Positions 2,837 to 12,079 of a stretch of DNA of 32,000 nt are shown here, one piece after another. This stretch comes from Telmatocola sphagniphila (lineage in GTDB: Bacteria; Planctomycetota; Planctomycetia; Gemmatales; Gemmataceae): assembly GCF_018398935.1 (NCBI RefSeq), contig NZ_CP074694.1:5940001-5972000 (forward strand). The letters run 5' to 3'. Each line of letters begins with the position of its first letter. The first letter of the stretch is position 1. Under the pieces are notes generated by a model. That model worked only from the letters and a program-made list of their open reading frames with translations. It ran no database searches and had not been told where the DNA came from. A program made the position numbers and the translations under genes.

Positions 2837-3526
2837 ATGACTGGAATTCTCAGAGGAATTCCAATTCGGAGAAATCTCAAAGTGCAGCGTGCCCCGATTG
2901 AAATAATCGATCCTTGGATGGCCCAACGAACACGCAATTATGCCTCCTTTCTATTGCTGGTGGTCGGGTATTCGTTTGCGTTCTTCGTTCTACTGGCCTC
3001 ACGTGCCGATAATCAGGCAGAACTTCATTCACTTCTCTTTTATGACGTTCTTATCGGCGTGATGCTGACTACAGGTTGTCTGTTGCGAGTCGGCACTGAC
3101 AAATTCAGCGTCATAATGCGATTTTCGGTTCGGCTGATGAAAATAGTGTTACTTGCAGGTCTTCCCCTGTTCGCTTTGATTTGGTTTCAGTACTCGGCCG
3201 CTAATATTCGTTGGCGAAGTCCCAATCAGAAAACAGAGTTTCAATTGAATGACTTGTTTTATCATGCTTTGGAAGAGTATAAAACCGACTGCGGAGACTA
3301 TCCCAGCGAGAAGGAAGGGTTACGCGCTTTGGTAGAGAACCCTCAGGTGCGGGGTTGGAAAGGGCCGTACGCTCCCGAGGAATTCCTAAGAGATGGCTGG
3401 GGTCAGGAGATCCGGTATCAATTGAATTTGCAGGATGGTAAACCGATAGTCTGGTCGATTGGTGCCGATGGCCTGGATGGCACCAGTGATGACATAATTC
3501 GCCCCAGACTGGTGAAGCGGGATTAA
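2837..3526 (+). CDS. Membrane protein with a C-terminal type II secretion GspG-like (pseudopilin globular) domain and no prepilin leader
   Basis: The C-terminal ~95 aa (YHALEEYKTDCGDYPSEKEGLRALVENPQVRGWKGPYAPEEFLRDGWGQEIRYQL...VWSIGADGLDGTSDDI) matches the T2SS protein G C-terminal pattern. The N-terminus has about 3 hydrophobic helices instead of a G/FTLIE leader. The likely true start is the ATG at 2918 (MAQRTRNY). Confidence 0.75.
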   Translation: MTGILRGIPIRRNLKVQRAPIEIIDPWMAQRTRNYASFLLLVVGYSFAFFVLLASRADNQAELHSLLFYDVLIGVMLTTGCLLRVGTDKFSVIMRFSVRLMKIVLLAGLPLFALIWFQYSAANIRWRSPNQKTEFQLNDLFYHALEEYKTDCGDYPSEKEGLRALVENPQVRGWKGPYAPEEFLRDGWGQEIRYQLNLQDGKPIVWSIGADGLDGTSDDIIRPRLVKRD

Positions 3527-3704
3527 TATTCGTTGGCAGATTTGCTTTGTAGAGCCAGACGAGGATTGGAATTGTTTGAAAGTAGGGCATGTCGGCGGGG
3601 TGGCACTGGCAGCCAAACTAAATCAACGCAAGTCGTGATTGAGTAATAGTTTGGGTGGCACTGGTTAGGACTCGCGCCAAATTAAGTTACCGAATTCTTA
3701 GTAC

Positions 3705-4995
3705 CTATGAGGGATGGATTTCATAGTTCCACTCGCCGTGAAATTCGTTTCGTTTGATATTGCACTCCGCCAGTTTTTCATCGCTCACTTTTCGGCCTTT
3801 TTCATTGGAATTTTCGTCGACCCAAACATGGACTTCCAACCCCGTTTCCGTCGTCGTCGCGGCTATCGATTCGACCACTACCTCCCAAGTTTCCAAAGGG
3901 ACGCCCTGCCAATTCCGTGTAATGTGGCAAAACAACCGATGTTCGATCTTGTTCCACTTGCTCGTTCCGGGCGGATAATGACAAACCTCGATGATCAATC
4001 CCGTCTGATCCGCCCACCTCTGCAACTCCACTTTCCACAGACGGCACCGCGAGCTATTACTCCCTCCGCTGTCCGCCGTTACCAACAACCGTTTCGCACT
4101 CCCATAACGCTTGCGGCCCAATTTCTCCCACCAACGCCGAATCGCACCGACCGCAAACTCGGCCGTGTCGTGACTGATTCCTACCGACACTCCCGCCTCA
4201 TTGCCGTGAATGTCGTAAACGCCGTACGGCACGATCTTGCCCAATTCCGGATCCGGAAAATCATGCGTCTTGACTTGCTGAGGAACCCCTTGAGGCCGAT
4301 ACGTTTTCCCCGGATTCTTCAGATTTCCCAGCGTTTCTTTCTTCTTGGTGTCAACCGAAATCGCTGGCTCTCCTCGACGCTGACGCGCTTTCACCCGATT
4401 GGATATATGGTGAAATTGGCCGTCCCGATCCGGATGCTGACGACCTTCCCGCGTTTTGCGATTGCCCTGCAAACTATACTTCATCTCAATCAGCAGACGA
4501 CGCACTGAAGTCGCACTCACCTTGTAACCCTGCTTCTTCAGTTCAGAGGCCAGTCGATAAGTACTCTTGATCGTCCAACGCAAGGGATTCAGAGTCTGTT
4601 CCAAAAGCCTCTATTTCTGGACAATTTCTCAAGGATTTGTAGGGTTAGTTCCCGCTTTTGGAACAGACTCTCATCGGAGAACCCCGAACCGTTGGCTCGA
4701 TCAGACGATTTAGAGCGTCCCGCAGGTCCGGTTGCGTTACCGTATGAGATTTGCGACCCCCGCCGCTTCGACGTTGACGAGAACCGGGAAGCGGATCGGG
4801 ATCGTCGAGTTCCTTCAGGCCCGTTCGAATAGTGCGATCCGACAGGCCCGTGGCTAACGCCACGGCTGTGATCCCTCCATGCCCCAAGGCTCTCGATTCC
4901 ACGGCCGCCCACCGTCGACGACCACGCTCATCTAAATCGTCGAACAGTACCATGTACTTCTCGCGAATCGCCTCTATAGTTGCTGCATCCTGCAT
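3705..4995 (-). pseudogene. ISAzo13-family (Rhodopirellula-type DDE) transposase, split into two ORFs (4645..4995 and 3705..4604) by a miniature insertion
   Basis: The N-terminal ORF ends ...LIEPTVRGSPM+RVCSKSGN*. The C-terminal ORF continues NPLRWTIKSTYRLASELKKQGYKVS...VTADSGGSNSSR...HYPPGTSKWNKIEHRLF, typical of ISAzo13 transposases. The frames differ by +1, which matches an 82-bp insertion (79 bp + 3-bp duplication). Confidence 0.9.
4592..4670. mobile_element. 79-bp MITE-like element with perfect 17-bp terminal inverted repeats and a 3-bp TCA target duplication
   Basis: GAGTCTGTTCCAAAAGC at 4592-4608 is the exact reverse complement of 4654-4670. TCA occurs at 4589-4591 and 4671-4673. Removing 4592-4673 gives ...RGSPMNPLRWT..., one continuous transposase frame of about 402 aa. 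Confidence 0.85.
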
Positions 4996-5537
4996 CGCAG
5001 GATCTTAGCAGAATAAACTATAAGGATTCAAGACCAATTCGGTAACTTATTTTGGCGCGAGTCCTTACTTGCTGTTTTTGTTGATCTTCGTGAATTGTAG
5101 GACTCAATCCTCGTCCAATTTCCGGTTGTCACTGGCTAACCGCCAGTGCGTGGGAGAAAAAAGTGCCAGAGAATTGTCACTATCTCAGGGACAAATTCGA
5201 GCAGAAAGAACGCTTTATTGCAGAAACGCACTCGCAGATGGCCAGTGCCACTCAAACCGTTACTGGATAACGACATGCGCTGATTAAGAATGCTTGCCAG
5301 TGCCCCCCGCCGGGGCATGAATTCCTTCTGGGTTGAAATAGGGTGATTTGTTGTTGTAGGATGGGTGAGTTCTAAATGGCACTGTCAGATAGATAGTGCC
5401 ACACAAGTCTAGATTTTACATCGACTTGCGTTTATTGAGATGGGGTGCCAGTGTCACCCGTCGTGATGTTAAGAACGTCAGCTCGCACATTATGATGTAA
5501 TATGTACCAATTCGAACTCAATTAAAAGAGTCCTGCC

Positions 5538-5786
5538 ATGTGGCTAATATCAATAACATTTATCGTGATAAGTTTCAGCAGTATGTTTTGTTTGTCAATT
5601 TTGAAAATATTGAAAATAATACCAAAGAAAAGGGCCTTCTGGTTACGACTCATCATCTTTATAGTCGTCTTCTTTTATCTGATTGTCATCAATATTCACA
5701 ACAAGATTTATTATTTGCACAACCGGAGCTCATTTTTTGCCTGTCCCCAGTCGAATCTTGCCGTACTAGACCTTAAACCAGCGTAG
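5538..5786 (+). CDS. Small hypothetical protein in an AT-rich spacer between repeat copies A and B (frame uncertain)
   Basis: Two overlapping ORFs exist: 5538..5786, which is hydrophobic, and 5540..5776, which is soluble-looking. The segment is markedly AT-rich. No recognisable motif. Confidence 0.3.
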   Translation: MWLISITFIVISFSSMFCLSILKILKIIPKKRAFWLRLIIFIVVFFYLIVINIHNKIYYLHNRSSFFACPQSNLAVLDLKPA

Positions 5787-5844
5787 TTTTTTGGGGAATT
5801 GTTTCGATTTATCGAAGAAAGCTCGAAATCCTTTTTGTTTTCTG

Positions 5845-6315
5845 CGGCGCGATGGCACTGGTAAGCTAACTAAATCAACTTAAGTCGTTATTGAGTAACA
5901 GTTTGGGTGGCACTGGTCACTTGCTGTTTTTGTTGATCTTTGCGAATTGTAGGACTCCATCCTCGTCCAATTTCCGTGTGGCACTGGCTAACTGCCAGTG
6001 CGTGGGAGAAAAAAGTGCCAGAGAATTGTCACCCTCTCAGGCACAAATTCGAGCAGGAAGAACGCTTTATTGTAGAAACGCACTCGCAGATGGCCAGTGC
6101 CACTCAAACCGTTACTGGATAACGACATGCGCTGATTAAGAATGCTTGCCAGTGCCACCCGCCGGGGCATGAATTCCTTCTGGGTTGAAATAGGGTGATT
6201 TGTTGTTGTAGGATGGGTGAGTTCTAAATGGCACTGTCAGATAGACAGTGCCACCCAAGTCTAGATTTTACATCGACTTGCGTTTATTGAGATGGGGTGC
6301 CAGTGTCACCCGTCG
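5845..6315 (+). repeat. Repeat-family copy B (full length, 471 bp)
   Basis: Left end is CGGCGCGATGGCACTGG and right end is GGGGTGCCAGTGTCACCCGTCG. Internal hairpins are GCACTGGC-taact-GCCAGTGC (5981-6001) and GGCACTGTC-agata-GACAGTGCC (6230-6252). It is the uninterrupted paralogue of copy A. Confidence 0.9.
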
Positions 6316-6440
6316 CAGATGGGGCAAGGGTTTACTGGCGGCTGGGTACAGATGGAAAAACCATAGAAATTCTCGGTAAGTCTTCGAAGGCGAATCAGGA
6401 CAAAGTGATAGCCGAGGTGCTGGAGGTATTTGGCAAATGA
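6316..6440 (+). pseudogene. 3' remnant of an ORF truncated by repeat copy B (possible RelE/HigB-Gp49-like or other toxin C-terminus; tentative)
   Basis: This frame reads ...DGARVYWRLGTDGKTIEILGKSSKANQDKVIAEVLEVFGK*. Upstream it runs into the repeat TIR and hits a stop at 6288-6290. Its TGA (6438-6440) overlaps the ATG (6437-6439) of the next ORF. Confidence 0.35.
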
Positions 6441-6751
6441 TTGATGATGAAACATTTACGTTTCGAATCATGGGCGGGCATGACGTTGGAGATGTCCATA
6501 ATGACAACTTCGACATCGAAGTAATTATGGCAAACGGAGATCGTTACATTGGCACAACTTTTACGATAGCAAATATTGTGACAATCATGGAAAGGCATGA
6601 AAAGTCTGGAGAATCTTCAAAGGGTGCTTACTTCTGGGCAAGTGACATGCTGATCGTCAAGGATTTGCAATTTCACACCATCCATGCTGCGATTGCCGGG
6701 TTAATTGAAGAGGAGTTATTAGAGACGGCATTTAGCAAAGTCCCATCATGA
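6437..6751 (+). CDS. Hypothetical small cytoplasmic protein (possible immunity/antitoxin-like partner; tentative)
   Basis: 104-aa acidic ORF with coding-like composition. ATGA overlap with the upstream ORF remnant. Followed directly by a 30-bp-arm hairpin. Confidence 0.6.
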   Translation: MIDDETFTFRIMGGHDVGDVHNDNFDIEVIMANGDRYIGTTFTIANIVTIMERHEKSGESSKGAYFWASDMLIVKDLQFHTIHAAIAGLIEEELLETAFSKVPS

Positions 6752-6753
6752 AC

Positions 6754-6869
6754 ATCGATTGGCTCATGAGGCGACAGCGGTGCTGCCTCAGGGGCCGAAA
6801 GGGGATTTGGCGTAAAGTCCTGCCAATTCAGCAGCCGCCGCACCGCTTTCGCCCCATGAGCCAATCGAT
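6754..6869. repeat. Long inverted repeat (30-nt arms, 2 mismatches, 56-nt spacer)
   Basis: ATCGATTGGCTCATGAGGCGACAGCGGTGC (6754-6783) pairs with GCACCGCTTTCGCCCCATGAGCCAATCGAT (6840-6869). It starts 3 nt after the stop of 6437..6751. Confidence 0.8.
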
Positions 6870-7005
6870 TTTCTTCGGAACTTCATCGCCGAAGCGAGGC
6901 AGGCTTCCTGCAACCGCAACACAGCCTTCTTGCTGCTGTGGTCGGATTTCGAGCTTGTTCGATTGCAGCAGGCAGTGCGGTGTGTGTCGTTCTTCAGGTG
7001 CTACG

Positions 7006-7134
7006 ATGGATTCACTGACCGCTCAATTCCTGATGGCCTGCGAGCAGTTCGTGGGCGTCCGGCGACCGCTGGTGGAAGACCTCGCCTCCGCGCTCGACGT
7101 CCCTCCCCAGGAACTGTTCTACCTCTGGATGGAA
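7006..7134 (+). pseudogene. 5' fragment of an HTH-like (excisionase/AlpA-like?) ORF that runs into repeat copy C
   Basis: From the ATG at 7006: MDSLTAQFLMACEQFVGVRRPLVEDLASALDVPPQELFYLWME.... The frame continues into the repeat TIR (RRGGTGNQTK*), so it looks truncated or interrupted at 7135. Confidence 0.3.
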
Positions 7135-7405
7135 CGGCGGGGTGGCACTGGTAACCAAACAAAATGAACTTAAGTCGTTATTTAGTAACAGTTTAGGTGG
7201 AACTAGTCACTTGCTGTTTTTGTTGATCTTTGCGAATTGTAGGACTCAATCCTCGTCCAATTTCCGGGTGGCACTGGCTAACTGCCAGTGCGTGGGAGAA
7301 AAAAGTGCCAGAGAATTGTCACCCTCTCAGGCACAAACTCGAGCAGAAAGAACGATTTATCTCAAAATGGCACTGTCAGATAGACAGTGCCACGTGCGCC
7401 CGTGA
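7135..7405 (+). repeat. Repeat-family copy C (internally deleted, about 271 bp)
   Basis: Same left TIR (CGGCGGGGTGGCACTGG) and the first ~220 bp of the family, then a jump to the GGCACTGTC-agata-GACAGTGCC hairpin (7369-7391). Hairpin GCACTGGC-taact-GCCAGTGC at 7271-7291. Confidence 0.8.
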
Positions 7406-7544
7406 CTATTCGATACTAGCAGGGTGAGATTCCCTGTCGAAAGGAGGCTTGGCCTTTTGTACCCGAAGGTAACTGCGTCGCCGTGAGGCGGGGTGGGGAG
7501 CAACCCGAGGGGAGCATCTCGTCCGCAATAAAGTGAACTCGTTT

Positions 7545-7791
7545 CGGCGGGGTGGCACTGGTAACCTAACTAAATCAACGTAAGTCCTTATTAAGTAACA
7601 GTTTGGGTGGCACTGGCTATTGCCAGTGCCGTTTCGATATGACTCCCGCTTTCGGATCGAATTTGTTTCGGAGTTGGCGAAAAGTCTCTCTGATTTCTCT
7701 TTCTCAGGCACTGGCAGATAGCCAGTGGGATCCAAAACATTACCTGACAATGATTTACGGTGATTCTAAAGGGTTACCAGTGCAACCGCGG
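7545..7791 (+). repeat. Repeat-family copy D (diverged short member, about 247 bp)
   Basis: Left end CGGCGGGGTGGCACTGGTA and right end TACCAGTGCAACCGCGG form TIRs. It shares the ~75-bp left module. Hairpins GGCACTGGC-tatt-GCCAGTGCC (7609-7630) and CACTGGC-agata-GCCAGTG (7709-7727). Confidence 0.75.
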
Positions 7792-7811
7792 CTATAGTAA
7801 ATATATAGTTC

Positions 7812-7840
7812 TTGACCTTTAATTATCTGTATTATATATA
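7812..7840 (+). promoter_or_regulatory. Candidate sigma-70-type promoter for the 7870 ORF
   Basis: TTGACC (7812-7817), a 17-nt spacer, then TATATA (7835-7840), 30 nt upstream of the ATG at 7870. The AT-rich context makes chance matches likely. Confidence 0.3.
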
Positions 7841-7869
7841 ATAATATTTGGCTTTTTTGGGATTTTTTT

Positions 7870-8259
7870 ATGAATACCTCAATTGCTTATCTTTATTCTG
7901 AAGCGAATTCCGAGGGGGACAATGTTTCTCAGAAGAAGTATGTCGATTTGACACACAAGGCGATCATTAATGCCTTCAAAAAATTTCCTTTGCCTCGTGA
8001 AGGACTCAAAAAAGAAAGGGCTGACTACTCGATAAATTTTTATTTGGTCTGGGAGAAGGGCAGGGAGACTTTTGAAGTGAATGGTCCATCTTATTCAAAG
8101 AAGTACAAATGTTGCGATTATAGTGTTTTTTTGCCGAACGAGCTTAGGGACGTAGTTGAGTATCTGGATGTTTTGTGTCAAGCAATTTTGTTGGTATTTC
8201 CTAATTATGATGTTGATAGATTTAAAAAGTGTTGCATGATCAAATCTGATGGATTGTGA
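7870..8259 (+). CDS. Hypothetical protein in a strongly AT-rich segment (foreign-looking composition)
   Basis: 129-aa ORF with an ATG start and Lys/Asn/Tyr-rich composition. It lies between repeat copies D and E. No motif recognised. Confidence 0.6.
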   Translation: MNTSIAYLYSEANSEGDNVSQKKYVDLTHKAIINAFKKFPLPREGLKKERADYSINFYLVWEKGRETFEVNGPSYSKKYKCCDYSVFLPNELRDVVEYLDVLCQAILLVFPNYDVDRFKKCCMIKSDGL

Positions 8260-8479
8260 TGATGGGCTAAAGTAATTAAAGGTGAAACGATCTGTTGGGT
8301 TTTGGGCTTGTTAATATTGAATAGATTTGCGAGAAAACATTAATCCATAGATTTTCTGTATTAATTAAAAAATTCAGTTAATGATAATGCTGCGATTTCA
8401 TATATTTTGCGAAGCGTCTTTGCCTTTCTGCCATCTATTCGTAAGATTTGGGTATTAGGAGATAATCCAATCTTCTTGT

Positions 8480-8619
8480 CGGCGGGTGGCACAGCCGAAT
8501 CCGTCCCACATAATGTAATTCATTATCCTATAATGTTTTGGGTGACACTGGCAAGCTGCCAGTGCGCTATAGATCAGGCCTCTGAAATGGCTTCGAGCAT
8601 CCTTCCAGTGGCTGCGTGG
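8480..8619 (+). repeat. Repeat-family copy E (highly diverged/minimal; right boundary uncertain)
   Basis: Begins CGGCGGGTGGCAC. After a different ~45-nt centre it has GTTTTGGGTGACACTGGCA-agc-TGCCAGTGCG (hairpin 8545-8563). Possible right end CCAGTGGCTGCGTGG at 8605-8619. Confidence 0.45.
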
Positions 8620-8760
8620 AACTAGAAATTCGTACTTTTAGATATTCCGTACCGCGCAAGACAAATCAGGTAACAGGTTAGAAGGAATGGCAGAAGTCGA
8701 ACAATGCTACCCGCCGGCTCGTTTATGTGAAACATTAACCTTGGTAATATCTCCTCGAAG

Positions 8761-9682: not shown

Positions 9683-9994
9683 GAGCGATCTCCAAAAAAG
9701 TGAGTTCAGTCACAGGCTGGGTTTAGATCCGATGTTCATGCAAATTCAATAATGCATTAACATCCTACGGAAGCGGTACACCTTACTCGTCTCTTCCGGA
9801 GCAAATCGGCAATCTAAAATTGCCCAGCCGCAGGGTAGCACGGGCGGGCAATTTTCCGTTACCGTAACCAATTTCCCCTTAGCCTCTCGAGTACCAGTCG
9901 CCATCTCCTAAGTTCAGCCGGTTGCATCCGCACTTTTTTCTTTTCTCAGAAAATGCTTGCGTTTGAATTTGCGTTAGAGTCTTTCTTCTTATCT

Positions 9995-10013
9995 TTTGCG
10001 CTTTTTGCGCAAA
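9995..10013. terminator. GC hairpin TTTGCGC-ttttt-GCGCAAA, possible terminator downstream of the 10030..11577 gene
   Basis: 7-bp stem and 5-nt loop. The T-run (CTTTTT) is on the plus-strand side and only an A-run lies on the minus-strand side, so the orientation is ambiguous. Confidence 0.3.
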
Positions 10014-10029
10014 CTTTTTGTGTATTTTA

Positions 10030-11577
10030 TTAAATCGCGGTTTTGAGTTCTTTCGGGAACTCTTTGATGCGGATACGAACGGCCGCCGCCATCACCGCAT
10101 TGCCTTTATCCGTCACATGATAGCGATGCGCCCGCGGGACTTTCCGAATCAATCCATGAGCGCGCAACCTTCCCAATTGTCGCGAGACTCGTTGCGTTTG
10201 CCGACGCCGTTCAGCGGCATCCCGGGCGGGCTCGTTCAACGCTTTCAGGATGTCGTGGTTGCGAAACCCATTGATGCGATTATCGCCGCATAAGACAGCC
10301 AGGAATAGCTTCTGTTCTTCGGCGTGCATCAAGTTCAAGCCGCGTCGCTTCCGGTTACCCAGAGAGACGGGTTGACTCAGTTGGTCGAGTTGACGCACGG
10401 TGACCGAAGGAGCGTCCACAACGGCCAAAGCCTCGAGATAGCGTCGATTCGAAGCGCGGGCGACTTCGAGGTAGCGATAGAAATTAGACACGCCTTTGTT
10501 CATGGGGCACCAGGCCATTTTTTCGACCCCTTTGCGGATGCATCGACGGCGGACGTGGAACTCGCCTGGCTGGTTGATTACTGTTTCAATGCGGAGAATC
10601 CGTTCGAATTTGTCGTACATTTTCAGCCAATTGCCTTTCATGCGGTGCTTGACGCGTGTGCCCGGTGCCCGTTTCTTGCGGCCCAGAGTAAGAATTTCTC
10701 CGTCGAATTGAGGATAGAGCTTGCGTCCCAGGAATTTCATAAGGTCGTCGGCAGAGAACTGTTGAATCGAGTGATCGACCAGACGCGGGTAAAGAGCTTG
10801 TAAGTCTTCACGACTTCGGAACAAAACGTCCGTGCTGTACTCGGCTTGATCGATCACCCAGTAGTATTGGCAGCGGTTCAGCCAGTCTTTTTTCAATAGC
10901 GGATTGGCCCGGCGGACCCAACGGTCGAGAATTTTGATCCAATTCAAATGGGCAAAGCGATCGGCCAGGCGTTGAGCGGCTTCGGGATTGTCGAGTTGAA
11001 CGAAGGCATTATCGCTTTGAAGGAAGCCGATCTGCTTTTCGTTCATCTGGCGGGCCAGCCAGTCGTGACCGTTGACGTAGACTTGGACGCTGTAAGGAAA
11101 GAAGGTTTGGATGCGGACATGGATCAGTCCGAACTCGGGATCGAGAGAATAGAAATAGACGACGCGTTGCGGGCGAGACGTGAAGTACAATTCCGGTCGA
11201 TCCTTGCCGGGACGCAGCTTGACGCCGCGACAGGTTTCCATGCAGCACAGCACGGCGACCAGTCCTTCCTTTAGACTGCGTTTGGCAATCTCCTCGCGGA
11301 TGATCTGCTCTTTGGTGTGCTCCCCTTGGAGAAACCGATAAGGAGCACCGGCTTCGGCGGCGACTCGTTTGCCATGTTCCACCAGTTCTTCGGACAGACC
11401 TTCCAGGAAGGGAACGAAGTCTTTGCGACGCATGCCCAGTCCGCTATCGCAGAGACGGTGGAGATCTCCATTCTTGAAAAAGGGAAGATATCCTTTGAAA
11501 ATCACGCGGTCGTGACATTCCAGAACGGATAGAATGGAATCGGCGAACTTCTTCGTAAATGAGTTGATCGTCGGCAT
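10030..11577 (-). CDS. Large conserved-looking protein of unknown function with a C-terminal winged-helix (MarR-like) motif
   Basis: 515-aa ORF with clean coding composition. The C-terminus RVSRQLGRLRAHGLIRKVPRAHRYHVTDKGNAVM resembles a wHTH recognition helix plus wing. The central region (YFYSLDPEFGLIHVRIQTFFPYSVQVYVNGH...YYWVIDQAEYSTDVLF...KHRMKGNWLKMYDKFERILRIETVIN) has no assignable catalytic family. Confidence 0.8.
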   Translation of the reverse strand: MPTINSFTKKFADSILSVLECHDRVIFKGYLPFFKNGDLHRLCDSGLGMRRKDFVPFLEGLSEELVEHGKRVAAEAGAPYRFLQGEHTKEQIIREEIAKRSLKEGLVAVLCCMETCRGVKLRPGKDRPELYFTSRPQRVVYFYSLDPEFGLIHVRIQTFFPYSVQVYVNGHDWLARQMNEKQIGFLQSDNAFVQLDNPEAAQRLADRFAHLNWIKILDRWVRRANPLLKKDWLNRCQYYWVIDQAEYSTDVLFRSREDLQALYPRLVDHSIQQFSADDLMKFLGRKLYPQFDGEILTLGRKKRAPGTRVKHRMKGNWLKMYDKFERILRIETVINQPGEFHVRRRCIRKGVEKMAWCPMNKGVSNFYRYLEVARASNRRYLEALAVVDAPSVTVRQLDQLSQPVSLGNRKRRGLNLMHAEEQKLFLAVLCGDNRINGFRNHDILKALNEPARDAAERRRQTQRVSRQLGRLRAHGLIRKVPRAHRYHVTDKGNAVMAAAVRIRIKEFPKELKTAI

Positions 11578-12079
11578 GGCGTCGAGTCTCCAACGGTTGT
11601 GTGGTTACTTCCATTGGATAAACCGACGCCATGTTCGTTAATACCTAGGGTTGCGGGCATTGCCCGCGTTAAGATATACCATTTTTCCAGGGATTTATCG
11701 GGTGACTCCGAGAGGTCCTTCATCTTCTCGATTTTTGAACAAAACGAACCAGTTCGAAAGCCTTTAAGACTTTCGCATCCGCGATCTGGCGAAGCCAGCG
11801 ACAACAAAAAACAAAGGCCCACGGTCTAAATGGGCGAATAACTTTCGCCGGAAGGTCCCGGTACCGAATCAATACCGGGCACGTTCGAAATGGAGGTGGA
11901 AATCGCGAATGAATGAAGAAATTTTGTGAAAGACGGGCTCGCCGAGTTGCGTTTTCGCAAATTCTTCTCGCTCAGAGTGTATCAGTACGGATCAGCGAAA
12001 GAGAGCGGCACATATCCAACCTCTCTCGGCCATATTTCTCATTCTTTGATCTTTTGTGCACCCAATAGGAGTGTTTCAC

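Follow-up and report, generated by a model that had tools for sequence, protein, structure and literature searches.

The window analyzed here, a 32,000-nucleotide stretch of the Telmatocola sphagniphila genome (Planctomycetota, Gemmatales), contains a cluster of five related non-coding elements in a 5-kb gene-poor island, which is low in GC and in which insertion sequences collect too. These elements, A (3593-5463), B (5845-6315), C (7135-7405), D (7545-7792), and E (8480-8717), had been recognized in a sequence-only reading, and all five, along with every palindrome listed for them, were confirmed in place; the end of E, however, had been put near 8619, and this element extends to about 8717, its decayed right arm aligning with D. 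Overall, we counted 22 copies of the heptamer GGCACTG/CAGTGCC in the window, where 3.25 ± 1.8 would be expected and none of 100 shuffles reached this number; 20 of the 22 lie between 3602 and 7713, as previously estimated by hand. Outside this interval, two copies are found in the window, at 3092 and 25657, rather than the single one noticed before. Likewise, GTGGCACTGG (≤1 mismatch) was detected 21 times in the window for 1.3 expected, and a profile search retrieved 10 copies of the arm that bounds the elements (E ≤ 5e-17), every one inside 3589-8561, with no further copies in the other 41 kb of T. sphagniphila DNA examined.

Each element is bounded by inverted copies of this 75-90-nt arm, which is composed of an outer half-site CGGCGGGGTGGCACTGG, a spacer of ~43 nt, and an inner GGGTGGCACTGG site that often forms a full hairpin, the two sites being direct copies of a 12-nt site placed ~55 nt apart. 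Two inverted arms around a core of 75-160 nt make up an element of 240-320 nt in total, and the simplest complete form, represented by D and E, measures ~240-250 nt. The ends are inverted repeats with 72-81% complementarity, in agreement with the terminal inverted repeats originally described, although these had been given an extent of 19 nt and are in fact the entire arms. The full-length form of about 470 bp proposed for the family is similarly better described as a composite, found in A and B, in which a 64-nt linker joins a 320-nt inverted-repeat element to an additional right arm standing alone. Within the window, the arms point both ways, as do hairpins within a single intergenic region. 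When copies were aligned to define their ends and any target-site duplication, the ends proved sharp, the flanks unrelated (ATGT/TGAT for A, TCTG/CAGA for B, GTTT/CTAT for D, and TTGT/GCTC for E), and no direct repeat was found at any of the five elements. Copies differ from each other by 7-35%, and are therefore not recent.

The individual elements display several variations on this layout. In element A, the left arm (3593-3667, plus strand; nhmmer E 3.6e-22), with CGGCGGGGTGGCACTGG and GGGTGGCACTGG separated by a 43-nt spacer, is followed by an insertion sequence (IS), and the remainder (5068-5463, plus strand), delineated through repeat comparison and the arm profile, includes a core hairpin (5130-5148), an inverted arm R1 (5228-5312), the 64-nt linker, and a further arm, R2 (5379-5463), which is likewise inverted. 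Element B shares this complex layout exactly, linker included: its left arm (5845-5919, plus strand; nhmmer E 3.5e-22) and core hairpin GTGG-CACTGGC-taact-GCCAGTG (5978-6003, plus strand) are followed by an inverted arm R1 (6080-6164, minus strand) that closes the 320-nt inverted-repeat unit (5845-6164), and then by the solo inverted arm R2 (6231-6315, minus strand), whose hairpin, CACTGTC-agata-GACAGTG, carries a compensated change (G>T / C>A). Element C (plus strand) is a deletion derivative, with a left arm (7135-7209), a core hairpin (7268-7293), an R2-type hairpin (7369-7393), and a collapsed terminus, GTGCGCCCGTGAC. Element D (plus strand) is a compact complete form, in which a left arm with a full hairpin (7607-7630) and a right arm (7707-7792; hairpin at 7709-7727) enclose a 75-nt core inverted relative to that of C. 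Finally, element E (plus strand) is a decayed D-like copy, with a left arm (8480-8565; hairpin at 8546-8564; E 4.6e-17) and a decayed right arm comprising a degenerate hairpin (8632-8652) and the outer site CAATGCTACCCGCCGG (8702-8717). Folding as single-stranded DNA and as RNA, both suggested at the outset, yielded a long hairpin for D (z -7.8 as DNA) and for B (z -8.1), and a z-score of -7.9 for D as RNA.

Other mobile DNA lies within and next to the cluster. The IS already noted inside element A belongs to the ISAzo13 family (3665-5067, minus strand; PF07592, E 9e-130; NF033519). Its inverted ends span 33 nt each (3664-3696 and 5036-5068), it shows a TA/TTA duplication, and its transposase is split between two ORFs (4645-4995 and 3705-4604). 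Excising it in silico from A restores a B-like sequence, i.e., this IS is a secondary insertion that stands outside the repeat family. Its transposase gene is itself interrupted by an 81-nt palindromic mini-insert (4591-4671, no strand assigned; perfect 18-nt inverted ends; z -5.6), which is nested and unrelated to the repeats. A neighboring gene encoding a 515-aa "hypothetical" protein (10030-11577) is part of a multicopy mobile unit of ~1.7 kb, and no known transposase domain was recognized in its product. The repeat motif is absent from both the ISAzo13 element and the 515-aa element. Small orphan ORFs are also present between the repeat elements.

The initial interpretation of the repeats as non-coding holds. 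Differences between B and A in the ORF that overlaps the repeats are distributed 3/5/4 across codon positions 1/2/3, the other two frames display a similar pattern, and no homologue was detected among 5.8 billion proteins. Searches for an RNA product were negative as well: the elements gave no Rfam match, even at a permissive threshold, covariation did not back a fold of the arm itself, promoter and terminator signals did not rise above background, and terminator-like T tracts were absent.

We next consider the hairpin itself, which carries a GTGG tag on a single side, in its fuller form (G)GGTGG, directly 5' of the stem; tagged half-sites without a 3' arm are also present. A census of 44 hairpins from 14 loci included 33 with GTGG immediately preceding the stem on a single side and not one with the tag on both, and the window's own hairpins, which unlike the others were not pattern-selected, include the tag in 5 of 8 cases. 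The basal stem CACTGG/CCAGTG is invariant, while the distal stem and loop are variable yet complementary: 11 stem variants were observed, all of them fully complementary (including CACTGGC, CACTGTC, CACTGGCA, CACTGGCG, CACTGGCT, CACTGGCAG, CACTGGCGG, CACTGGTGG, and CACTGGTTG), and distal stems differ from genome to genome with complementarity kept. These compensated changes suggest selection on pairing. Stems are 7-10 bp long in 42 of the 44 hairpins, and loops, mostly of 3 or 5 nt, span 3-5 nt in 40.

Both the hairpin and the arm occur in other planctomycetes. Tagged hairpins of the same type were identified at ~13 other loci, mostly from Planctomycetota, where they cluster either as tandem arrays (L105, L095, L103, L069, L063, and L107) or, in a Lacipirellulaceae genome (L072), as close-set inverted doublets in a REPIN layout. 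The two-site arm was found in two metagenome contigs, L125 (at least three copies) and L126, with a site spacing of 51-55 nt maintained around an unrelated spacer sequence; in L125, three co-oriented modules are located between toxin-antitoxin-like gene pairs. The sequence-only reading had reasoned that a motif restricted to this locus would indicate a local segmental duplication, and at the level of the family no such restriction is seen.

Taken together, the tag, the fixed basal stem, and the free but compensated distal stem match the published definition of REP elements, i.e., a GT[AG]G tag, with GTGG explicitly permitted, placed 0-2 nt upstream (5') of a stem of 7-20 bp whose loop measures 2-5 nt (Quentin 2018, PMC6006769; PMC3733652), and the REP-like anatomy initially proposed for these GTGG-preceded, shared-arm hairpins is thus upheld. 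The resemblance to REP, BIME, and REPIN sequences extends to elements that lie outside the window's long genes, that are arranged singly, in tandem, or as inverted doublets folding into long hairpins, and that lack both target duplication and coding capacity. Several features differ, however. G+C content is lower in the basal stem, CACT having 2 G/C where the short-hairpin rule for REPs calls for ≥3 among the first four positions (PMC6006769), and half-sites are frequent. A two-site arm of 75-90 nt, in an element of 240-470 nt, takes the place of a REPIN of ~100 nt as the unit, and conserved terminal half-sites and arms of this size are found more typically at transposon ends than in classical REPs. 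Classical REPs are densely scattered over the genome, whereas the copies seen here are locally clustered, all 10 arms falling in 5 kb and the remaining 41 kb examined lacking any, which is a counter-point to a REP interpretation.

REP, BIME, and REPIN sequences of Escherichia coli, Pseudomonas, and Stenotrophomonas, including the GTAG families (Di Nocera 2013, PMC3733652), are mobilized by RAYTs, which are Y1 HUH transposases (PMC3733652; PMC6006769). A related arrangement is that of TIRtrons, in which RAYT-like Y1 genes (TIRYT) lie between long inverted repeats that start with a GGGGWSAS motif and also form solo and dimer families (PMC3733652). This layout was observed in the twelve loci we sampled (L132-L143), three of which (L133, L135, and L143) carry, upstream of the Y1 gene, further solo ends in tandem, much as R2 adjoins a complete unit in A and B. 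The T. sphagniphila inverted repeats also exist as solo, dimer, and grouped copies and start with a G-rich sequence, GGGGTGGC, which agrees with GGGGWSAS at only 7 of 8 positions, or GGGTGACA in some arms. They are nevertheless unrelated to the sampled TIRtron ends (AAAGGGGTCAGTCCCGC / AAAAGGTGTCAGTCCCGGC), and the T. sphagniphila arms have no Y1 gene between them or nearby. Because searches by regular expression and HMM returned no Y1/RAYT ORF in the window, as already noted from the sequence alone, nor across a further 14 kb of flanking DNA or at any hairpin-bearing locus, the link to such an enzyme is one of analogy.

With these similarities and differences in mind, we assign a probability of roughly 0.5 to the reading in which the elements represent a new, lineage-specific, non-autonomous family of REP/REPIN/BIME-like repeats, for which a Y1 HUH transposase acting in trans is the probable mobilizing enzyme. 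The building block is the REP-type hairpin, in which the tag (G)GGTGG, on one side only, leads directly into the stem CACTGG..CCAGTG, and an element exposed as single-stranded DNA can form one long hairpin. A putative Y1 tyrosine transposase of the RAYT or TIR-associated type, with its gene in another part of the genome, would recognize the tag and basal stem on single-stranded DNA and copy or move the elements without target duplication. Subsequent recombination between repeated hairpins may have generated the extra arm of A and B, the internal deletion of C, and the core inversion of D, and E is a decayed copy.

Alternatively, these elements may be classical MITEs, i.e., deletion derivatives of a DDE-type or other non-Y1 double-strand transposon, in which the repeated GGGTGGCACTGG sites, two per end in an IR/DR-like layout, would be what the transposase binds. 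Discrete terminal inverted repeats with two direct sites each, a spacing conserved in other genomes around an unrelated spacer, a size of 240-470 nt, and co-location with other mobile DNA would all fit, and bacterial MITEs such as Correia/NEMIS, RUP, and ERIC are likewise small, non-coding, bounded by inverted repeats, able to fold into long hairpins, and prone to decay and recombination into variants. Yet target-site duplications are absent at all five elements, no parent IS with such ends is identifiable in the window, where the ISAzo13 and 515-aa elements lack the motif, and the internal hairpins are of the tagged REP type. A strictly one-sided tag (0/44 two-sided) would be unexpected if each hairpin were simply two inverted transposase-binding sites, and the compensated stems suggest selection for pairing, so we regard a MITE origin as possible but unlikely. 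The initial suggestion of a PATE or IS200/IS605 derivative was rejected: subterminal hairpins and the lack of target duplication are shared with PATEs, but the ends are true, mutually inverted repeats instead of asymmetric ones, no conserved target tetranucleotide flanks them, and no tnpA or tnpB remnant was found.

Other explanations do not invoke a dedicated transposase. Host hairpins, which might serve as mRNA 3'-end stabilizers or protein-binding sites like some REPs, may have multiplied through local duplication and recombination and been kept in an accessory island without being mobile now. The confinement of every copy to 5 kb, the identical complex layout of A and B down to the 64-nt linker, a divergence too high for recent copies, and the capacity of recombination between hairpins to account for the variants are consistent with this scenario, but the A and B flanks are unrelated right up to the sharp ends, the arm architecture is present in other organisms, and hairpins lie in both orientations within one intergenic region, without terminator-like T tracts; we consider it decidedly unlikely. 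A structured RNA, whether small RNA, riboregulator, or processing signal, is very improbable: the strongly negative RNA folding z-score follows trivially from the inverted repeats, and the compensatory stem changes have to be set against the negative Rfam, covariation, and promoter/terminator results and the side-by-side opposite orientations. Integron-like sites (attC or CALIN) between small gene cassettes would agree with the orphan ORFs and with the co-oriented L125 modules, but GTTRRRY/RYYYAAC cores are absent from the ends, GTTRRRY is not enriched, arms have mixed orientations, and a single tyrosine recombinase is encoded in the window, 20 kb from the elements, a XerD equivalog scoring below the integron-integrase cut-off. 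This reading, extremely improbable, was rejected.

A more novel reading would make the GTGG-CACTGG hairpin the mark of a Planctomycetota-wide superfamily with no canonical RAYT, and the T. sphagniphila elements, with their two-site arms and conserved terminal half-sites, a new hairpin-ended non-autonomous class served by an unrecognized enzyme. There is room for it, since the family still lacks a linked enzyme and departs from the rule of a G+C-rich stem foot, but we regard it as a long shot. If the REP/REPIN-like reading is correct, copies would have built up in a low-GC, insertion-tolerant island of the T. sphagniphila genome. Overall, the finding is real but fairly ordinary, since these elements look like a new family of a known type of repeat, the REP/REPIN sequences.

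The sequence-only reading had described a swarm of related repeats in the window, which comes from Telmatocola sphagniphila (Planctomycetota, Gemmatales), and the swarm is real and was correctly described: where 3.25 copies of GGCACTG would be expected, there are 22, 20 of them within 3602-7713. Similarly, GTGGCACTGG with ≤1 mismatch was found at 21 positions (1.3 expected), and the paired pattern TGGCACTGG-N38-52-GTGGCACTGG at four (0 expected). Repeat analysis and alignment indicated that the family is organised on an arm, a 75-90-nt unit in which 43 nt of spacer separate an outer site, CGGCGGG(G)TGGCACTGG, from an inner site, GGGTGGCACTGG. In six arms, a full hairpin is present and the inner site supplies its 5' half. 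A profile search recovered exactly 10 arms (E 3e-24 to 5e-17), five on the + strand (starting at 3589, 5841, 7132, 7539, and 8475) and five on the - strand (5232-5318, 5383-5468, 6084-6170, 6235-6318, and 7712-7795). Neither the rest of the window nor a further 14 kb of flanking sequence, taken from an independent assembly of this organism, contained another copy. The five elements that these arms form (A to E, 3593-8717, end sequence CGGCGGGGTGGCACTGG) are thus bounded by long inverted repeats. Elements D (7545-7792) and E (8480-8717, decayed) display the simple form, i.e., an arm, a 75-nt core, and an inverted arm, while in A and B a 320-nt form is extended by a 64-nt linker and one additional, solo inverted arm (R2). 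Element C is an internal-deletion derivative, relative to which the core of D runs inverted. Aligning the ten arms placed the element boundary at CGGCGGG / CGACGGG, and no direct repeat or common target motif was detected in the sequences flanking A, B, D, and E. The ORFs within the repeats had been proposed to be non-coding, which holds, since the differences between copies are spread evenly across codon positions and a homologue search was empty.

The repeat cluster sits in a low-GC stretch (42-49%, vs 52-59% in its surroundings) whose only other contents are small orphan ORFs, a single insertion sequence, and a second mobile unit, in a window that otherwise carries planctomycete hallmarks such as a DUF1559/N-methyl protein, a GspG-like pseudopilin, and a 'Rhodopirellula transposase'. 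Of the ORFs, 6437-6751 matches KIH39_23835 and 7870-8259 matches KIH39_23845 at full identity, and 6748-7167 clusters at 90% with the shorter KIH39_23840, for which NCBI annotates only a 53-aa product. Within this mechanically listed ORF, directly after a 104-aa ORF, lies a 37-nt inverted repeat (6750-6786 / 6837-6873, 89% complementary, 50 nt between), which may be a further small palindromic element or a large hairpin resembling a terminator. The insertion sequence, an ISAzo13-family member (PF07592, NF033519) with TA/TTA on its sides, is held by element A, and its removal restores the B sequence GGCACTGGT(T/C)ACTTGCTG. Its transposase gene is itself divided into ORFs 4645-4995 and 3705-4604 by an 81-nt palindromic mini-element at 4591-4671 with perfect 18-nt inverted ends (AGAGTCTGTTCCAAAAGC), so that the nesting reaches three levels: mini-element, insertion sequence, and repeat element. 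Separately, a 176-nt unit is tandemly duplicated at 2155-2508 (2.0 copies, 92% identity) within an ORF-poor 800-nt stretch, and the independent short-read assembly breaks just upstream, at ~2025, which suggests that another dispersed repeat begins there.

We searched for CACTG[GT]...[CA]CAGTG palindromes across the window and all fetched loci, yielding 44 hairpins from 14 loci. In 33 of the 44, GTGG immediately precedes the stem on one side and not the other, and in none does it do so on both sides; because the loci were chosen by a pattern that itself contains this tag, its presence is not informative, while the never-two-sided asymmetry and the compensation within the stem are. The six basal stem pairs are invariant except in two copies of the window, where a G>T change is compensated by C>A, whereas stem positions 7-9 and the loop vary between genomes, always with a complementary stem (eleven stem variants). 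REPs are defined by this same anatomy, with a stem of 7-20 bp, a loop of 2-5 nt, and a GTAG or GTGG tag lying 0-2 nt from the stem (PMC6006769), and GTGG tag variants are known in Opitutus terrae (PMC3733652). Hairpin-bearing loci derived mostly from Planctomycetota MAGs (Isosphaeraceae, Pirellulaceae, Lacipirellulaceae, and unclassified), and also included one cyanobacterium and two contigs of one 'Zipacnadia' MAG. The hairpins are arranged in tandem, repeating every 30-65 nt, and, at one locus (L072), in close inverted doublets, i.e., a REPIN layout.

When metagenomes were scanned more strictly for the two-site arm, two convincing relatives emerged, L125 and L126, in which the 51-55-nt spacing of the two sites is conserved but the spacer sequence is not. 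L126 carries one module on a planctomycete contig. In L125 (metagenome contig Ga0194125_10002971, 1-2195, a 2.2-kb view of 27.7 kb), three co-oriented ~200-nt composite modules separate same-strand, toxin-antitoxin-like small gene pairs, including a YafQ/RelE-like toxin with its partner, a layout that is cassette-like. Each module includes a tagged half-site, a spacer with ACTAAATG, and one or two CACTGGCrG hairpins, and two of the three also include a GTAGGG-tagged GTGGGCA hairpin. Hairpins of this second type, with a (G/C)TAGGG tag, adjoin the GTGG-CACTGG modules in both L125 (GTGGGCAaTGCCCAC, ~85-110 and ~1075-1100) and L126 (GGTGCGTCtcgaGACGCACC, ~6270-6300 and 6436-6460). One was also found in the window (GCGGGCAtTGCCCGC, 11643-11668), at the end of the second mobile unit. 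They resemble GTAG-type REPs that accompany the GTGG-CACTGG family.

Several explanations were weighed for these elements. An origin as a MITE of some double-strand transposon would accord with the two-site ends, yet the target duplication is missing and the tag is one-sided. A PATE or IS200-IS605 derivation, also put forward from the sequence alone, does not hold up, as each end is an inverted copy of the other and no coding remnant is left. Integron attC-like sites were likewise rejected: there is no GTTRRRY core, arms occur in both orientations, and the sole tyrosine recombinase in the window is XerD. Alternatively, the elements may act as structured RNA. Single long hairpins were predicted for D and B as DNA (z -7.8 and -8.1) and also as RNA (z -7.9), as the inverted repeats dictate; no covariation-supported fold was found for the arm alone and no Rfam match for the elements, and promoter and terminator signals did not exceed background. 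Finally, the elements could be immobile local duplicates of host hairpins. Every copy seen falls in one 5-kb cluster, and this, together with a stem foot that is not G+C-rich, differs from textbook REPs.

The best-supported reading is nevertheless a non-autonomous family of the REP/REPIN/BIME type, based on the one-sided tag, the conserved stem foot with a free but compensated distal stem, the absent target duplication, and the finding of hairpins singly, in tandem, and as inverted doublets. We infer a link to a Y1 enzyme, in that a Y1 HUH transposase acting in trans would recognise the elements as single-stranded hairpins; no Y1 ORF was found within the 46 kb of T. sphagniphila sequence examined, nor in any hairpin-bearing locus. 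For the long inverted-repeat form, a close precedent is provided by TIRtrons, RAYT-like genes between long inverted repeats that start with GGGGWSAS and also occur solo, as dimers, or grouped (PMC3733652). Using a typed PVC-type RAYT consensus, we retrieved twelve such loci (L132-L143, on contigs encoding the PF01797 proteins P0152 and P0180). These are textbook TIRtrons, with a Y1 gene between ~30-nt inverted repeats (AAAAGGTGTCAGTCCCGGCTATTGTAGAATA or TAAAGGGGTCAGTCCCGCATAATGATGGA), and in three of them (L133, L135, and L143) two or three extra tandem solo left repeats lie upstream of the Y1 gene, reminiscent of R2, the additional arm in A and B. Their repeat sequence, AAAGGGGTCAGTCCCGC, differs from the window element ends, GGGGTGGC, which match the GGGGWSAS motif at 7 of 8 positions.

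The second mobile unit is a ~1.7-kb one-gene unit (~9975-11672) encoding a 515-aa 'hypothetical protein' (10030-11577, - strand, identical to KIH39_23860 of the 6,592,641-bp T. sphagniphila record). Across homologous contigs, 75% nucleotide similarity is limited to the gene, ~95 nt upstream, and ~55 nt downstream, and the flanks differ. T. sphagniphila encodes at least 7 copies of the protein, each with ≤3 of 515 residues different from the window copy, and the independent short-read assembly breaks at the edge of the unit. The family comprises 6,405 clusters at 50% identity, and nearly all close relatives in metagenomes are on 1.7-2.3 kb contigs, a signature of a multicopy element. The unit has no terminal inverted repeats; a hairpin lies near each end, with TA on both sides in 4 of 4 copies. 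In a conserved leader hairpin (z -5.2), the start codon pairs with upstream CAUGGCGUC and would thereby be occluded, a feature of many IS elements too. Searches of Pfam, NCBIfam (with its IS-family transposase models), PHROG, and PDB sequences returned only a C-terminal winged helix. The AlphaFold model is confident (pLDDT 92, pTM 0.84) and had no significant match among PDB folds. It shows a TBP-like double repeat plus winged helix, in which the two alpha/beta repeats have long strands and are similar to the TATA-box-binding-protein-like domains found in giant-virus proteins (probability ≤1.0, TM ≤0.48). Invariant residues of the protein are D23, E114, Y141, Y143, K319, Y321, R329, and E331. 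The GGCACTG motif is absent from this unit, which is unrelated to the repeat family. A site ~190 nt past the 3' end of the gene (9826-9845, CCGCAGGGTAGCACGGGC) shares 14 of 18 positions with the outer terminal site of the arms, and may be a relic half-site or chance. Overall, the unit looks like a candidate unrecognised insertion-sequence-like family. As a large unannotated family with IS-like behaviour and no known transposase fold, it is the window's more surprising object and merits separate study.

The repeat family itself opens no long-standing question. In practical terms, it interrupts short-read assemblies at this T. sphagniphila locus and flags an insertion-tolerant island, and it is best filed with the REP/REPIN/TIR-repeat kind, as a new family with an unusually large composite architecture. 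If this is true, it would add a REP/REPIN-type family from a phylum where such repeats have barely been described, with an architecture intermediate between classical REPINs and the long inverted repeats of TIRtrons, and could shed light on how, in Y1-transposase-dependent repeats, long ends evolve into short hairpins.
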